NCBI GenBank assembly: GCA_038229875.1
Contig: JBBROA010000004.1
Span: 161-64,160 of the forward strand
Origin: Thermoanaerobaculia bacterium
GTDB taxonomy: Bacteria; Acidobacteriota; Thermoanaerobaculia; UBA5066; Gp7-AA6
Reading direction: 5' to 3'
Length of the DNA: 64,000 bases
Each line of letters starts with the position of its first letter. Within the stretch, counting starts at the first letter, position 1. The position numbers were made by a program, and so were the translations under genes. Below are positions 28,156 through 35,198 of the stretch, piece after piece. Under the pieces are notes generated by a model. The model did not search any database. It saw nothing but the letters and a program-made list of their open reading frames with translations, and was not told the origin of the DNA.

Positions 28156-30552
28156 ATGAACCGCCTTGGCCGTGACCTGCGCTCCGCGATCCGTACACTC
28201 CGGAAGAGCCCGGGTTTCACCGCGGTCGTCGTGGTGGTGCTCGGCCTCGGCATCGGCGCGAATACCGCGATCTTCAGCCTCGTGGACGCGGTCCTCCTGA
28301 GGCGGCTCCCGTATCCCGAGCCCGACCGGCTGCTGCTCCTGCCCGCGCGACACCAGCCCGAGGACATGGGCGCTGAGGTGTCTCTCGCGAACTTCCTCGA
28401 CTGGCGGCGGGAGAGCCGGTCGTTCGAGCAGCTCGGCGCCTGGGCGCCGGCCTCGTTCGATTTCACGGCCGGATCGGCCGAGCGCGTCCAGGGCGCGCGG
28501 ATCACTCCCGCGGGCCTCTCGGCGCCCGGGATCAAGCCGCTGCTCGGGCGGACCTTTCTTCCCGAAGAGGAGGGACCGGATTCGCGCGTCGCGGTCGTCA
28601 GCTTCGGCTTCTGGCGGAGCCGCTTTGGAGGCGATCCTTCGATCCTCGGGAGGGTCATCCGCCTTTCCGGCTTCGAGTACCCGATCGTCGGCGTGATGCC
28701 TCCCCAATTCGCGTTCCCGAGCGCCGATATCCAGGTCTGGACGCCGCTGCGCATGACCGAGCAGCGCGTGCGGGACCGGCAGAGCCGGTATCTCTACGCG
28801 GTTGGACGCCTGAAGAGCGGCGTCTCCCTCCGCGCGGCGCAATCGGACATGGATCTCGTCACGGGGGCGCTCGCGCGCGAGCACCCCGACCTCAACCGCA
28901 ACTGGGGAGTCCGGCTCCTTCCGATCCGCGAGTCCCTCATCGGAAAAGTCCGGCCGGTTCTCCTTCTCCTGCTGGCCACCGTCCTCCTGGTCCTGGCGAT
29001 CGCGTGCGCGAACATCGCGAACCTCCAGCTCGCCCGCGCCGCTTCGCGGCGGCGCGAGATCGCGATCCGCTCCGCGATCGGCGCTTCGGCGGGCGACGTC
29101 CTCCGGCAGCTGGTGCTCGAGGGCGCCGTCCTGTCGCTTGGCGGCGGCGCTCTCGGGCTCCTTTTCACGCGAGCGAGCCTCGGCATTCTCGCGGCGTGGA
29201 GCGCGCCGGGGGCGGAGAACGTGCGGATCGACGCGCGGGTCCTCTTCTTTACGTTGGCGGTCTCGCTCGTGACGGGGATTGTCTTCGGACTGGTTCCGGC
29301 CCGAGCGGCGCTCCGCCCGGACCTTCTGGACGTCCTCCGCGAGCAGGGACGCGGCGCGTCCTCGGGAGTCGGGCAGAACCGATTCCGGCGGCTTCTGACG
29401 GGTGGGCAGGTCGCGACCGCTCTCGTGCTCCTGATTGGCGCAGCCCTTCTCCTCTCGAGCCTGGCGCGACTTCAGAGAGTCGAGTCAGGTTTCAATCCGA
29501 AGGGTCTGTCGACCATCGAGGTCGTGCTGTCGTCGCCGCGGTACTCCGACCTGGAACGGCGCGCCGCGTTCGTCCGCCAGCTCGTCGACGGCGCGGGGCG
29601 GATTCCGGGAGTGACATCCGCCGCGGCGGTCGGGCAGCTGCCGTTCGGCGGCAGCAACAGCACCGAAAGTTACTGGATCGAGGGACAACCCCGGCCCCCC
29701 CTCGGCGCTGCCCCGGAAGCGGGACTTCGGGAAGTGACGCCGGGTTTTTTCCGCACGCTGGAGATTCCGGTGGTGGAGGGCCGCGATTTTTCCGTGTACG
29801 ACACCGCGCGGTCGGCCGCGGTCGTGCTCGTGAACAGAACGTTCGCGCGGCGGTACTGGCCGCGGGCGAGCGCGGTCGGACACCGGATCGTGCTGTCCGA
29901 CGCGGCCCGCGTTTCGCGGGAGATCGTCGGGGTGGTCGCGGACATCCGGCACACGGCTCTCGAGGCGCCCACCGTCCCAGAGATCTACGTTTCCTTCGAG
30001 CAGAACGGCGGCGACGACGTGGCGCTCGTCGCCCGGTCGCGCGAGGGGAGCGCCGGGGTTGCCGCGAGGCTGCGCGCCGTCGTCGCCGCGCTCGATCCCG
30101 AGCAGCCGGTGTTTCACGTCCGCACGATGGAGACCCTGCTCGCGGATTCCACCGCGCGTTCGAGGCGAACGACCGCCCTCGTCGGAGGCTTTGCCGCGCT
30201 CGCGCTCGTTCTCGCCGTGCTCGGCGTGTACAGCGTCATTTCCTTCTCGGTCGCCCGGCGTGGGAGGGAGTTCGCGATCCGGCTCGCCCTCGGAGGCAGC
30301 CGCCGCGACGTGCTGACGCTCGTCCTCGCGGAGGGAATGGGAGTGGCCCTCGCGGGCATCGGGGTGGGACTCGTTGTCGCCTGGGCCGCGACTCGGGCAC
30401 TCGCGAGCCAGTTGTTCGAAGTTCGCGCCGACGATCCCGGGATCTTCGCCGCGACCGCCGCGATCCTGGGGGCCGTGGCGCTTGTCGCGTGCCTCGTCCC
30501 CGCCTGGCGAGCGTCGCGCGTCGATCCCGTTGCCGCGCTGCGCGCGGAATGA
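28156..30552 (+). CDS. ADOP-family duplicated orphan permease (two MacB-like periplasmic + FtsX modules)
   Basis: [35 protein letters not shown]-terminus and duplicated FtsX-type 4-TM units. No adjacent ATPase. Confidence 0.9.
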
Positions 30553-30729
30553 CCGGCGGCCGGAGCTGCCTGGAGCGTGACGGCCTGACACGTTCCGGCC
30601 TTCCGGAGTGAAGCCTGGAAACGCTTGACGCGGCGTGCGGCGCGGCCCGTCTCACACCCGCGATCGGAAATCTTCTTCCAGGGTCCGGCCGAACTTTCGG
30701 CTCGCGAGCCCGTAAGCCTCTCGAGAACG

Positions 30730-32760
30730 ATGTGGATGAAACGCCTGGCCCTCGCGGCGGTGACGGCGGCTCTCCTGCCGCTGTCCGGAGACGCGCTCCC
30801 GGCGGGCGCTTCGAGGATCGCCGGGACCCGCCCGGCTGACCCCCTCGCGGCGGAAATCGAGCGCTGGGCCGCGGTCCTCGAGAAGAGCCCCGCGACCGAC
30901 GAGATCTCGGCGGACGCCAGAAAGAACGGAGTCCCGGCGCTCGAGCGCGCGCGCCAGGCGCTCCGCGATGGCCGCCGCCTCCTCGCGCTCCAGCGGCTCG
31001 GGAGCGCGCGGATGCAGATCGAGGCCGTGGAGTATCTCGAGAAACGGCCGGCCGGTCAGCGCAGGGACGTGACGCTCTTCGAGGCGGAGTGGAAGCGCGT
31101 CGGCAGGTCGATTGAGGCAGACCTAGCGCCTCCCGCGCCGGACCGGTTCGCGAGCGTGCGCTCCGCCGCCATTCGCGCAATCGCGGAATCGACATTCGGA
31201 CAGGTGCGTCCCCATTACGAGGCGAGCCTGGACTACGGTCGGAGCACGACGCCTGACAGCGGCCTGATCTATCTGGGGACCGCGTTGTCGCAGCGCGAGT
31301 TCGCGGCGTTCTGCCGGACCCTTCCACCGGAACGGGCCGGGCAGGCGCCCCGGATGCGCAGCCTGGCTCCGGAGCTCGATCGATTCGAGGCGCGGCTTCT
31401 CGCGGCATACCGGCCGCCCGCCTCGATCGACCGCCACACCGATTTCATCATCAGCAGCGCCTCCCTGAAAGACGCGAGAGAGCTCGACGCGGCCGGACTC
31501 CGGTACGGGGCGCTGCTCCGCTACCTGCAGGCGGCTCAGCGCTTCGGCACGCTCGGGCCGCCTGAAACAGACCTCGCGGCGCTCAAGACGCGTCTGGCGG
31601 AGATCCAGTCGGCGCTGGCGGCGAGCGCGTCGGACGAGAGCGTCGGCCGTCTCTTCGTCGAAGCGGCCCAGGCGGACCTCTCGACGGAAGGCTCTACGGG
31701 CGTCGCGGCATCCGCAATCGTGCGTGACGTTCTGCCGCTCTACACCGCCGCTCTTCAGCCCCCGCCGCCTGTCGCGGCTCGCCTGAGCCCCGAAGCCGTC
31801 GTCACGGTGACCCTGGTCCGCTGGCCCTACACGTGAAACCTGTCCGACCCGGCAAGTTTGCTGGCACAGAGCGTGGTGGCGGGGTTCGGAGGAAAGGCGC
31901 GCTTCGTGTCGGAAAATTACGGGGACTCCGCGCTGGCGAAAAGATTCGGCGTGACGCGGTACCCCGCGATCTTCGTCGACGACGTTCTCGCCGCGACGCC
32001 GAAGGACTTCGGCTTCTACGGCAAGGGGGAAGGCGAGGGCGGCGGGCGCTACACTCCGTTGAAGAGCCCGGAAGCCCACGAGCGTTTCCGGTCCGATCTG
32101 ACGAAGATGGTCGATCTCGTTTTGGCCGGAAAGAAGGACGCCGCGCGCGCGCAGGCGCCCGCCCCCGAGGCCGCGGAGATTCCGTCACTTCCGGCTCTCT
32201 CGCTCACCGATCTCGACGGAAAAAAGCTCTCGCGCGAGGATCTCGCCGGGCGCGTGGTCTTAGTCGAGTTCTGGGCGACCTGGTGCCCGCCGTGCCGCGG
32301 CACCCTCGAGTGGCTCGGGGAGCTAGCGAAACGCCACGGCGACAGGGTCGCGGTCGTCGCCGTCGCTGTCGAGTCCGACGAGGCGAAGGTGAAAAAGCTA
32401 GCCGGCGACCTGCGCCTCCCGTTCTTCTGGACGATGGGAACCCCGGACCTCGCCCGGAGTCTCGGCGACGTGAGCGGGCTTCCGACGCTCTTCGTTTTCG
32501 ACCCGAACGGGAAGACGTCCGGGGTGTTCTTCGGGGCGCCGCCGGATCTGCATGAACGGGCCGAGCGGGCGGTAGAGGTTGCCGTCGCTGCCGTCGCCTC
32601 CGCTCACTCCGGGACGTGCCGTTCGCTGCCGCGAACGGCACCGGCGAGCGGCTCGCCTGTTGGCTCGACCGCTCGCCTCGTCCCTGCGTTCGCTGCGGCT
32701 CCCGCCCCGAGAGGCTCCTCCGTCCCTTCGGTCAGGAGACTCCTTTCGGGGCGAGCTTAG
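30730..32760 (+). CDS. candidate selenoprotein: exported protein with an unknown N-domain, a thioredoxin-fold domain carrying U-N-L-S at the CxxC position (UGA 31834-31836), and a TlpA-like WCPPC domain
   Basis: ORFs 30625-31836 and 31858-32760 share one frame and are separated only by one TGA. Beta1 (VTVTLVRW) lies before the TGA. The rest of the fold (GFGGKARFVSENY..ALAKRFGVTRYPAIFV) lies after it. A conventional reading gives two ORFs and splits the fold. Confidence 0.5.
31840..31869 (+). promoter_or_regulatory. SECIS-like stem-loop 3' of the in-frame UGA
   Basis: Upper stem CCGGCA/UGCUGG (31849-54/31859-64), loop AGUU, lower stem CUGU/ACAG. Counting the U of UGA as 1, the loop G and U are at positions 23 and 24. 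Confidence 0.45.
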
Positions 32761-32912: not shown

Positions 32913-33515
32913 GTGGAGGGCATGTTCAGAGAAGGAACGGATGAGCGGGCGGGGGAAGATTTTCCGCAGTCGCCCCCGGTCAGCATCCGGCCCTATCGTG
33001 TCGACGACGCGGAGCGCGTCTTCGAGGCGGTGCGGGAATCGATTGCGGAAATTTCGCCGTGGATGCCCTGGTGCCATCCCGGGTATGCCATCGAGGAGAC
33101 TCGGAATTGGATTGCGCATTGCGGCGTCGTTTGGCGCGACGGGCGCGAGTTCAACTTCGTGATCGAGGATCGAGCCGGCGCTTTTCTCGGCGCCTGCGGC
33201 TTGAATCAGATACGGAGGGGAGACCGGCTGGCGAACCTCGGGTACTGGGTCCGGACTTCAGCGTCCGGGCGCGGGGTGGCGACTGCGGGCGTGCGCTGCC
33301 TGGCGGATTTTGCGTTTGGTGCGGCGGGGCTCGAGCGGCTGGAGATCATTGCGGCGGTAGGGAACGTCGCGAGTCAGCGCGTTGCCGAAAAATGCGGCGC
33401 GCGGCGGGAGGGGCTCGTGGCGGATCGGCTGTTTCTGCGCGGGGTGCGCCATCCGGCGGTGGTGCTTGTCCTGGAGAGAGGATCCCGGCCGGTGACCCGG
33501 ACGGGTGGCGAGTAG
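32913..33515 (+). CDS. GNAT (RimJ/RimL-type) N-acetyltransferase
   Basis: IRPYRVDDAERVFEAV...NLGYWVRTSASGRGVATA...NVASQRVAEKCGARREG. Confidence 0.8.
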   Translation: MEGMFREGTDERAGEDFPQSPPVSIRPYRVDDAERVFEAVRESIAEISPWMPWCHPGYAIEETRNWIAHCGVVWRDGREFNFVIEDRAGAFLGACGLNQIRRGDRLANLGYWVRTSASGRGVATAGVRCLADFAFGAAGLERLEIIAAVGNVASQRVAEKCGARREGLVADRLFLRGVRHPAVVLVLERGSRPVTRTGGE

Positions 33516-33537
33516 AGAACGCGGAATCGTCCTAGAA

Positions 33538-34239
33538 TTGCGGCGACTTTGCGGAGCGGCCATTCGAAAAATCATCTGCTTCCTGGCGTTGAGCGCCGAC
33601 GGGTACATCGCCCGCGCCGACGGAGACGTCGCGTGGCTGGACCGGCCCGGAACCGCGGGAGACTACGGGATGGCGAAGTTCTACGCTTCCGTGGACACCG
33701 TTCTTCTCGGCCGCAAGACCTGGGAGCTCGGAAAGAAGCTCGGTCAGACTTCGTTTCCCGGCAAGAAGAACTTCGTATTTTCGAGGACGCTCGAACCCTC
33801 CCGGGAGAGCGTGGGCGAGGTCGAGGTCGTGCGCGAAGACCCCGGCGAGTTCGCCTCGCGCCTGAAAAAAAAGAAGGGAAAGAGCATCTGGATGGTTGGC
33901 GGCGCGGGGCTGATTGCCTCTTTCCTCGATGCGGGCCAGATCGACGAGCTGATCCTTCATGTCATTCCGATCCTTCTCGGCGAGGGAATCCCGCTGATCG
34001 AGCCCCGGAGGCGGGACGTGCCGCTCGAGCTCGTCTCGTCGCGCGCCTACGAGGATGGAAGCGTCCAGCTGCACTATTCCGTGAGGCCCGCCATCGCCGG
34101 GCCGGACGCCGTGAGTCCGGCCCGGGCCGCGGGAGCCGTGAGGCGGGCCGGGGCCGCGGAAGCCGCGCAGCTGGCCGGGGCCGCCGAAGCCGCGCCCCGG
34201 GTCCCCGATCGAGTGCGTTCGCGCGCCAGGAAACGCTGA
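33538..34239 (+). CDS. dihydrofolate-reductase-family (RibD C-terminal domain) protein with a repetitive Ala/Gly/Arg tail
   Basis: RKIICFLALSADGYIA...VDTVLLGRKTWE...IWMVGGAGLI...DELILHVIPILLGEGIPL. Start uncertain (TTG 33538). The tail is encoded by degenerate 27-30-nt repeats at 34081-34200. Confidence 0.75.
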   Translation: MRRLCGAAIRKIICFLALSADGYIARADGDVAWLDRPGTAGDYGMAKFYASVDTVLLGRKTWELGKKLGQTSFPGKKNFVFSRTLEPSRESVGEVEVVREDPGEFASRLKKKKGKSIWMVGGAGLIASFLDAGQIDELILHVIPILLGEGIPLIEPRRRDVPLELVSSRAYEDGSVQLHYSVRPAIAGPDAVSPARAAGAVRRAGAAEAAQLAGAAEAAPRVPDRVRSRARKR

Positions 34240-34272
34240 AGCTGACCCGAGCGCGCCACAAAGGAGAGACGC

Positions 34273-34680
34273 ATGCCGCTCGTGCGCATCGACGTGATCG
34301 AAGGACGGACCCGCCGCGAGCTCGACGCGATCGCGGACGGCGTCCACCAGGCGCTCGTCGCTTCGATCGGGATCCCGGCGGAGGACCGCTTCCAGGTGAT
34401 CTCGGAGCATCCTCCCGGATCGCTGGTCTTCGATGCCGGGTACCTCGGGATCAAACGCACCCGGGGCGTCGTCTTCATCCAGGTGACGATCTCCTCCGGG
34501 CGCTCGCTCGATCAGAAGCGGGCGCTTTACGCCGCGATCGCCGGGAACCTCTCGGCGAGCGCCGCCGTGCGGCCGGAGGACGTCCTCGTCAGCGTCGTGG
34601 AAGTTTCCCGGGAGAACTGGTCCTTCGGAAACGGCGCGGCCCAGTACGCCCCGCAAGTACCGGGCGCGGTGCGGTCGTGA
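34273..34680 (+). CDS. tautomerase-family protein (long 4-OT-like)
   Basis: MPLVRIDVIEGRT... N-terminal Pro after Met; 135 aa. Confidence 0.8.
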   Translation: MPLVRIDVIEGRTRRELDAIADGVHQALVASIGIPAEDRFQVISEHPPGSLVFDAGYLGIKRTRGVVFIQVTISSGRSLDQKRALYAAIAGNLSASAAVRPEDVLVSVVEVSRENWSFGNGAAQYAPQVPGAVRS

Positions 34681-35198
34681 CGGATCTCTCCTGGAGGTCG
34701 CCGAAGACGCGGGTCGGCGAAAGCGCGATTCAGGGCCGCGGGCTCTTTGCAGTCGAGCCGATCCCGGTGGGGGAGATCGTCGCGGTCAAGGGAGGAGCGA
34801 TCTTCGGACGCGCGGAGCTGGATGCGCTCGCGCCGCGGCTCGGGCCCGCGGAGATACAGGTCGCGGAGGGCCTGTTCATCGGCCCGGTGCTCGAAGAGGA
34901 TCGCGAGGGCGGCATGATCTTCAGCAATCACTCCTGCGAGCCGAACGTCGGCGTCGCCGGACAGATCATCTTCGTGGCCATGCGCGACATCGAGGCGGGT
35001 GAAGAGCTGACGCACGACTGGGCGATGACCGACGACGACACCTACGAAATGATCTGCCGCTGCGGTTCGGCTTCTTGCCGGAAAGTGGTGACGGGCCAGG
35101 ACTGGCGACGCCAGGACCTCCAGGAAAAATACGGCGACCACATGTCCTGGTACCTGCGGGAGAAATGGAAGCGCGCGATCGCGCCGGGACGTGGCTGA
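34677..35198 (+). CDS. SET-domain protein (putative lysine methyltransferase) with post-SET Cys cluster
   Basis: GTG overlaps the upstream stop (GTGA). GRGLFA, NHSCEPN, GEELTHDW, CRCGSASCRK. Confidence 0.85.
   Translation: MTDLSWRSPKTRVGESAIQGRGLFAVEPIPVGEIVAVKGGAIFGRAELDALAPRLGPAEIQVAEGLFIGPVLEEDREGGMIFSNHSCEPNVGVAGQIIFVAMRDIEAGEELTHDWAMTDDDTYEMICRCGSASCRKVVTGQDWRRQDLQEKYGDHMSWYLREKWKRAIAPGRG

Follow-up and report, generated by a model that had tools for sequence, protein, structure and literature searches.

In the 64,000-nucleotide stretch of a Thermoanaerobaculia bacterium contig analysed here (JBBROA010000004.1, assembly GCA_038229875.1, positions 161 to 64,160 of the forward strand; hereafter, the window), two adjacent open reading frames (ORFs) that public annotation treats as separate genes appear to be the two halves of one selenoprotein gene. 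That 30730-32760 is a single gene in which an internal UGA is recoded as selenocysteine (Sec) is strongly supported by sequence comparison, and the same holds for the identification of the hairpin just downstream as a Sec insertion sequence (SECIS) of the SelB type, which directs local UGA recoding and is predicted to bind SelB. The more encompassing reading, in which the recoded UGA and the SelB-type SECIS are combined with a four-part exported protein and a redox relay within it, we consider highly probable.

The two ORFs, 30625-31836 and 31858-32760, share one frame, and the sole stop codon between them is the TGA at 31834-31836, so that the coordinates given in an earlier note on this DNA are borne out by the sequence. 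On read-through, the junction becomes ...VTVTLVRWPYT-*-NLSDPASLLAQSVVAGFGGKARFVSENYGDSALAKRFGVTRYPAIFVDD (also written ...VTVTLVRWPYT-*-NLSDPASLLAQSVV..., the asterisk marking the TGA), and the motif FWATWCPPC of a second, TlpA-like domain is encoded at 32269-32295, 3' of the junction and in the same frame; the junction peptide and the second domain had both been pointed out in that note, and both are present as described there. The likely start is ATG 30730, which opens a signal-peptide-like sequence (MWMKRLALAAV...; MWMKRLALAAVTAALLPLSGDALPAG); the public gene call begins at the alternative ATG 30736. In public annotation, the locus appears as two genes, the first labelled 'hypothetical protein' and the second 'TlpA disulfide reductase family protein', 'ResA' or 'thiol-disulfide isomerase'.

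When 5.8 billion proteins were searched for matches to the read-through product, 947 relatives were identified, nearly all of which are about 365 residues long and end with ...VTLVRWPYT. The family is represented in 193 GTDB species genomes and 456 metagenome stretches, and the best 80 of each were compared at the DNA level, which, together with the window, gives 164 DNA copies of the gene (82 derived from genomes and 82 from metagenomes). In the 160 loci, tblastn matches cover query residues ~1-612 in a single frame. The codon in the UGA column is TGA in all 164 copies, with not a single TAA or TAG, the frame is kept past this codon in every copy, and the 14 codons 3' of the TGA are nearly invariant. 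The conserved peptide reads N-[LIV]-S-D-P-A-[SG]-L-L-A-Q-S-V-V...ENYGDS.LAKRFGVTRYPAIFV, its far end being E-N-Y-G-D-S-x-L-A-K-R-F-G-V-T-R-Y-P-A-I-F-V. The true 3' stops of the family genes (n = 81), in contrast, are a mixture of TAG (44), TGA (28) and TAA (9). The downstream halves deposited in databases have no conserved start and are called from scattered internal V or M codons, in agreement with the suspicion voiced in the earlier note that the downstream ORF has no credible start of its own. The claim that TGA otherwise serves as an ordinary stop likewise stands, given that the MacB-like gene upstream ends with TGA (30550-52), as do 28 of the 81 family genes.

Cysteine occupies the UGA column in four rare full-length homologs, each with a C-x-x-S motif and the surrounding consensus WP[YF]xC-x-L-S-DP. 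Two of these, P0002 (WPYT-C-NLSDPA) and P0007 (WPYS-C-NLSDPAS), are among the 947 relatives, and their forms at the DNA level (L081 and L082) have TGC as the Cys codon. The two more distant forms, P0245 (599 residues, from an Armatimonadota metagenome-assembled genome (MAG), annotated as a TlpA family protein) and P0348 (430 residues, ending before the CPPC domain), both with C-S-L-S-D-P, come from a further, exhaustive search of 1.84 billion cluster representatives. Thus, homologs carry either TGA or Cys at this position within an uninterrupted frame, as would be expected of a selenoprotein family, and the Sec forms far outnumber the Cys forms. The combination of mixed true 3' stops, an unvarying TGA in the column, the kept frame and the near-invariant residues beyond it argues decisively against a genuine terminator, a pseudogene or an assembly error.

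All elements of the hairpin described in the earlier note, namely, the CUGU/ACAG lower stem, the CCGGCA/UGCUGG upper stem and the AGUU loop with G23 and U24 (31856-57, counting the U of UGA as 1), are found at their positions. A single hairpin of this kind is unremarkable in GC-rich DNA, so that the case rests on comparison across sequences. Among the 82 genome-derived copies, the helix formed by bases 16-21 and 26-31 is 99.8% paired, and G23 and U24 are invariant (82/82). The cross-loop pair 22-25 never mismatches: 42 distinct sequences have G-C, 36 have A-U, and a neighbour-joining tree of the proteins requires at least nine switches between the two. Each switch amounts to a change from Gly GGU to Ser AGU at position +7, coupled with a synonymous change from Leu CUG to UUG in the next codon; such coupling is explained by RNA pairing rather than by selection at the protein level. 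The lower helix is 81% paired across the homologs, in a variable register, with most copies using a shifted CUCU/AGAG pairing.

The codons that form the hairpin are rare elsewhere in the same genes. At +6, Ala is encoded by GCA in 82/82 copies, compared with 3.6% of the Ala codons in the rest of these genes; at +7, GGT or AGT is used in 82/82 copies, compared with 5.7% (GGT) and 2.3% (AGT) of the codons for the respective amino acid elsewhere; and at +8, the Leu codon is TTG in 39/82 copies, compared with 3.7% of Leu codons elsewhere. The two Cys forms read at the DNA level lack the SECIS signature, with GCA-GCT in L081 and GCG-AGC in L082. Because TGA is present in 164/164 copies, the rare codons are fixed and the loop pair covaries, the hairpin is far beyond what chance would produce.

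The hairpin of E. coli fdhF is a proven SelB-binding mRNA element, and its sequence 3' of the UGA was confirmed in 5,419 genomes. Bases 19-28 of this SECIS (GCA-GGU-CUG-C, GCAGGUCUGC) are identical in the commoner variant of the family, the hairpin begins at the same distance from the UGA, and G23 and U24 lie in the loop, all within the coding frame; the fdhF-like geometry proposed in the earlier note is thus upheld, with equal spacing. The identical core being in frame, FdhF and the family proteins both read A-G-L at +6 to +8. The differences are that the family has a continuous 6-bp helix in which pair 18-29 is G.U or A-U, that A22/U25 (loop AGUU) replaces G22/C25 in ~40% of the copies, that the lower stem is variable and that the hexaloop CGGGAU occurs in a small number of copies from metagenomes.

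The Sec-containing domain of the protein is likely, but not proven, to have a thioredoxin-like fold. The AlphaFold2 model of the Cys homolog P0002, which stands in for the window protein, shows the succession b1(359-365)-C369-a1(375-385)-b2(391-397)-a2-b3(414-417)-b4(420-423)-a3(448-466), at medium confidence (predicted local distance difference test, pLDDT, ~67-85 for residues 359-466), so that the Sec position follows beta1 and marks the N-terminal end of alpha1. The invariant R-Y-P is just before beta3 and meets the G-I-P76 loop of E. coli TrxA in an hhalign register of low probability (2%); gapless extension of this weak register places U on C32, S on C35, W-4 on W28 and Pro on the cis-Pro P76. 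In a profile search of the PDB, 9 of the 25 weak matches are thioredoxin-fold proteins. The earlier assignment of a thioredoxin fold, with U on the first Cys and Ser on the second, is therefore favoured by the topology of the model and the weak TrxA register, and lacks a significant profile match.

Several observations weigh against the reading advanced here. No selA, selB, selD or tRNA-Sec gene is present in the window or in the 2.1 Mb of flanking DNA: the 64-kb window contains no tRNA genes at all, ARAGORN detects 13 tRNAs, none of them for Sec, in the 160 flanking loci, and tblastn with E. coli SelA, SelB and SelD gives no match in the window or these loci. The folding energy of the window hairpin is ordinary (z = -0.48, with 64 of 200 shuffles folding equally well), and the family lacks the bulged U17 of the fdhF SECIS. 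Six of the 82 metagenome copies have a variant loop, which is CGGGAU in five and GCUC in one. For the Sec domain, neither Pfam nor NCBIfam yields a match, hhalign assigns probabilities of 13% to the alignment with the protein's own TlpA domain and 2% to that with TrxA, the profile search of the PDB reaches E 0.2 for its best thioredoxin match and E 0.07 for its best match overall (endoplasmin), and in the P0002 model, the active-site loop (368-372) has a pLDDT below 50. Finally, the redox relay and its substrate are what we infer, and the unconserved gene neighbourhood offers no partner. The Sec machinery is presumed to be encoded in the source genomes; Sec use is documented in other Acidobacteriota (PMC1794560; PMC12013277; PMC13582414), and nothing specific was found in the literature on Sec use in Thermoanaerobaculia.

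The five CGGGAU copies (L108, L120, L133, L138 and L139) have CCAGC-CGGGAU-GCUGG from +16 to +31 of the TGA and encode the peptide DPAGMLAQ; G23 is retained, and U24 is replaced by G. The sixth (L149:2140) has a GCUC loop like that of the Cys form L081, yet TGA is present. In Rfam, no family exceeds the gathering thresholds in the window, and a permissive scan of 31780-31930 gives one chance match only; to our knowledge, Rfam contains no model of the bacterial SECIS. A screen of L001-L082 and the window for other selenoprotein genes, which required an in-frame TGA with coding periodicity before and after it together with a GU-loop hairpin, recovered this family only, with a filter that finds ~60% of the known family sites.

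If the TGA were a genuine terminator, the locus would encode a 'hypothetical protein' of 368 residues and a TlpA-like protein with an initiation site of its own, with the hairpin acting as an intercistronic element or an attenuator. Public gene calls divide the locus in exactly this way, and the DNA examined, window and flanks, contains no Sec machinery, but such an arrangement is difficult to reconcile with the uniform TGA set against the mixed stops at real 3' ends, the unbroken frame with its nearly invariant codons, the lack of a conserved downstream start and the existence of single-ORF homologs with Cys. Moreover, no terminator or promoter consensus was found between the halves, and the modelled domain would be split between beta1 and alpha1, which is the cut through the fold that the earlier note had foreseen; we consider this explanation highly improbable. 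An even smaller, practically negligible, probability attaches to a pseudogene or to an error of sequencing or assembly in the window contig: the source is a single MAG contig, and the C-terminal tail is atypical, but the same TGA, frame and hairpin recur in 160 independent assemblies from many projects. There is also little chance that the UGA is read through as something other than Sec, by near-cognate suppression with Trp, Cys or Arg stimulated by the hairpin, or by a lineage-specific recoding system. The missing U17 bulge and the lack of Sec machinery in the window and flanks would fit this possibility, but the apical hairpin matches that of a proven SelB-binding SECIS base for base and at identical spacing, with G23 and U24 fixed, the column is Cys in the homologs without TGA, a classic Sec/Cys pair, and, in the model, appears to be the redox position of a thioredoxin-like fold, and Sec use is known in the phylum.

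A further alternative accepts the selenoprotein and makes the Sec domain independent of the CPPC domain, as a stand-alone peroxidase or isomerase, a CcmG/TlpA-like factor for the assembly of cytochrome c or a copper centre, or an oxyanion reductase with ArsC-like C-x-x-S chemistry. GPx, with its U-x-x-T motif, works without an intramolecular partner, and the gene for the Armatimonadota Cys form (L163, GCA_018268315.1, JAFDWU010000002.1, 11669-13615) is located 2-4 kb from ccmA/ccmB/ccmC-like genes. The U-x-x-S motif is also found in the Sec-containing arsenate reductase and in a Prx-like family (PMC13188914). The ccm linkage, however, was seen once, the neighbourhoods of the Sec forms are not conserved, the Sec domain has no Pfam match to ArsC, GPx or Prx, and the fusion to the CPPC domain is kept in all full-length copies recovered but one (P0348), so that an independent Sec domain, while retaining an appreciable chance, appears unlikely. 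The Sec-containing protein with a coupled CPPC domain is the reading followed below, and the features of the gene are collected in the Table.

Table. Features of the putative selenoprotein gene, in window coordinates
Feature	Coordinates	Strand	Description
Complete read-through gene	30730..32760	+	676 residues, predicted Sec at residue 369, stop TAG 32758-60
Putative Sec-type signal peptide	30730..30810	+	MWMKRLALAAVTAALLPLSGDALPAGA; read from the sequence, cleavage site approximate
N-terminal all-alpha domain (predicted)	30832..31749	+	~residues 35-340; AlphaFold2 model
Atypical, likely thioredoxin-like domain	31795..32139	+	~residues 356-470; R-W-P-Y-T-U-N-L-S-D-P motif, invariant R-Y-P (cis-Pro-like) loop
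UGA, read as Sec (residue 369)	31834..31836	+	TGA in all copies (82/82 from genomes, 82/82 from metagenomes); Cys in four homologs
Lower stem of the hairpin	31840..31869	+	CUGU 31840-43 with ACAG 31866-69; poorly conserved
Predicted SECIS, upper stem-loop	31849..31864	+	bases 16-31 from the U of UGA; stem CCGGCA/UGCUGG, loop A22-G23-U24-U25
TlpA/ResA/CcmG-type domain	32188..32544	+	residues 487-605; WCPPC 32281-32295, C519 and C522 at 32284-32295
Low-complexity C-terminal extension	32593..32757	+	~55 residues; no counterpart in most homologs

The signal peptide lacks a lipobox Cys, and the N-termini of the homologs are equivalent, with a basic n-region, a hydrophobic core and an A-x-A-like end. 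For the alpha domain that follows, AlphaFold2, given an alignment of 65 sequences, returns a high-confidence model of 16 helices (pLDDT 90.5, predicted template modelling score 0.86). A Foldseek search of the PDB found no structural relative of this domain (best E 0.37, TM <= 0.27), and it has no match in Pfam or NCBIfam; it is specific to this selenoprotein family. The C-terminal redox domain, in contrast to the Sec domain, is readily recognized in Pfam, with Redoxin at 1.5e-16 (61 bits, cut-off 26.6) and AhpC-TSA at 9e-13, both above the cut-off, and its Foldseek matches are ResA and thiol:disulfide interchange proteins (E ~1e-7, TMt 0.8-0.86). The matches of the full-length model fall on this domain only. 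Against the NCBIfam equivalog models, the domain remains below the cut-offs (ResA subfamily, 63.6 bits against 170; TlpA, 60.1 against 230; DsbE, 37 against 123).

Only three redox-capable residues are conserved in the family, Sec369, Cys519 and Cys522, and the Ser of U-x-x-S is retained in the Cys forms. The window protein is unusually long after the Sec residue, with 307 residues; most homologs have 251 in this part, and the closest relative (L001), which also has a low-complexity extension, has 276. Within the extension of the window protein gene is an inverted repeat of 11 bp, perfect in both arms (GTGCCGTTCGC at 32616-26 with GCGAACGGCAC at 32631-41), and the extension looks like the result of a lost stop codon, with translation reading into a former 3' hairpin.

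Taken together, these features suggest the following mechanism. The SECIS hairpin, starting 15 nucleotides downstream of the UGA, would direct Sec insertion, giving a product of 676 residues that consists of the signal peptide, the alpha domain, the U-x-x-S thioredoxin-like domain and the TlpA/ResA-type W-C-P-P-C domain; upon failed insertion, termination at the UGA would give a second, truncated product of 368 residues. The protein would be exported to the periplasm via its signal peptide, where the alpha domain may supply substrate recognition and Sec369 may serve as the attacking nucleophile on an oxidised substrate, such as a disulfide, a sulfenate or a peroxide, forming an Se-S or Se-OH intermediate. 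Because the second position of the motif is Ser, this intermediate would be resolved by the fused CPPC domain, which, in turn, could be re-reduced by a membrane electron shuttle of the CcdA/DsbD type. Such a relay is what we infer by analogy with TlpA-ScoI, ResA, CcmG and the Trx-Msr fusions.

Most of the carriers are labelled as Acidobacteriota (Thermoanaerobaculia, Polarisedimenticolia, Vicinamibacteria and Holophagales), and among the soil members of this phylum the family is common. A few copies come from MAGs labelled as Eisenbacteria, Verrucomicrobiia, Kofleriaceae or 'delta proteobacterium' (L047, L067, L069, L070, L078 and L079), which could reflect horizontal transfer or errors of binning or labelling. 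One locus (L032) contains tandem copies (L032:148 and L032:1934), with two TGA sites 1786 nucleotides apart, and in four database proteins of ~545-552 residues (P0247, P0283, P0337 and P0350), a single ORF joins the post-Sec half to the N-terminal alpha domain of a following copy, which suggests tandem arrays or multi-module fusions of the family gene.

There is no conserved gene neighbourhood among the Sec-form loci compared, and no partner gene is indicated. The recurrent but unrelated neighbours include MacB-like permeases, a metallo-beta-lactamase-like protein, histidine kinases, fumarase and SdhA. In the window, the upstream neighbour (28156-30552, + strand) encodes a 798-residue MacB-like/FtsX permease (MacB_PCD and FtsX); paralogs of this permease are found near the family gene in 15 loci, probably owing to their abundance in Acidobacteriota. 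Downstream (32913-35198, + strand) are genes for a GNAT acetyltransferase (32913-33515), a RibD_C/DHFR-like reductase (33505-34239) and a SET-domain protein ending at 35198, a set that is found beside the selenoprotein gene in the closest relatives only. The Armatimonadota Cys-form gene also adjoins a cluster of TonB, ExbBD and TonB-receptor genes, and a TonB-dependent receptor is encoded near the Cys form in L082 as well.

The earlier note had proposed a candidate new selenoprotein. The comparative data bear out the selenoprotein part, and the claim of novelty, of a new family of the thioredoxin-fold kind of bacterial selenoproteins, is supported within the limits of NCBIfam 20.0, Pfam and the open literature. 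The selenoprotein models of NCBIfam 20.0 give sub-threshold matches that involve the CPPC domain only (WAxxUGC_long, NF041054, 26.9 bits with a cut-off of 300; TsoB, 10.8 with a cut-off of 805). The 2026 inventory of 119 prokaryotic selenoprotein families (PMC13188914) contains no family in which a U-x-x-S thioredoxin-like domain that lacks a model is joined to a TlpA domain, a comparison made without representative sequences of the UxxS Prx-like family in that inventory. The deep-Sep and BSepDB papers do not mention the family, and nothing specific on it was found in the open literature.

The gene is split in hundreds of public genomes, so that its recognition both mends the annotation and enlarges the prokaryotic selenoproteome by one family. 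The predominance of Sec over the rare Cys forms argues for a real catalytic advantage of selenium in this protein, and the family implies that Acidobacteriota, a phylum that is dominant in soil but poorly cultured, depend on selenium for an exported redox function. Tentatively, one may go further and see in the protein a new type of enzyme that is the signature selenoenzyme of soil Acidobacteriota outside the cytoplasm, with a hitherto unseen alpha-helical substrate module, a lone selenolate in U-x-x-S and recycling in cis by a TlpA-type dithiol, a possibility that we consider rather doubtful; if it holds, the periplasmic redox chemistry of this phylum would depend directly on selenium supply. 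For RNA biology, the family offers a clean natural data set on SECIS recognition, with a 10-nucleotide core identical to that of fdhF within a different stem and a perfectly covarying 22:25 pair that forces the choice between Gly and Ser in the protein. For structural biology, the N-terminal domain is confidently modelled, with no similar PDB entry.

Among the known selenoproteins, the TlpA/Redoxin-type families (PMC13188914) resemble the window protein in being redox proteins of the thioredoxin superfamily with Sec in place of the N-terminal active-site Cys, encoded by genes that are mis-split in annotation. In those families, however, Sec is inside the TlpA/Redoxin domain, whereas the TlpA domain of the window protein keeps its CPPC motif and Sec belongs to a separate, Pfam-less U-x-x-S domain preceded by a novel alpha domain of 330 residues. 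With GPx (UxxT), Sec-ArsC (UxxS), the Prx-like cd02970 proteins (UxxS) and monothiol CxxS thioredoxin-fold proteins, the window protein shares a lone nucleophile, Sec or Cys, where alpha1 begins and Ser or Thr in place of the resolving Cys, which implies an external or separate resolving thiol. The window protein has no detectable sequence relationship to any of these and differs from them in that the likely resolving dithiol is fused in cis. TlpA-like modules that recycle their partners are known from Neisseria PilB (Trx-MsrA-MsrB), pneumococcal Etrx-MsrAB and TlpA-ScoI, and the Foldseek matches of the TlpA domain include Etrx2 and the TlpA-ScoI complex. The likeness consists in an extracytoplasmic TlpA-type CxxC module placed beside a redox-active partner that the module re-reduces; in the window protein, the partner of such a putative relay would be a Sec-containing thioredoxin-like domain combined with a novel alpha domain rather than Msr or Sco.

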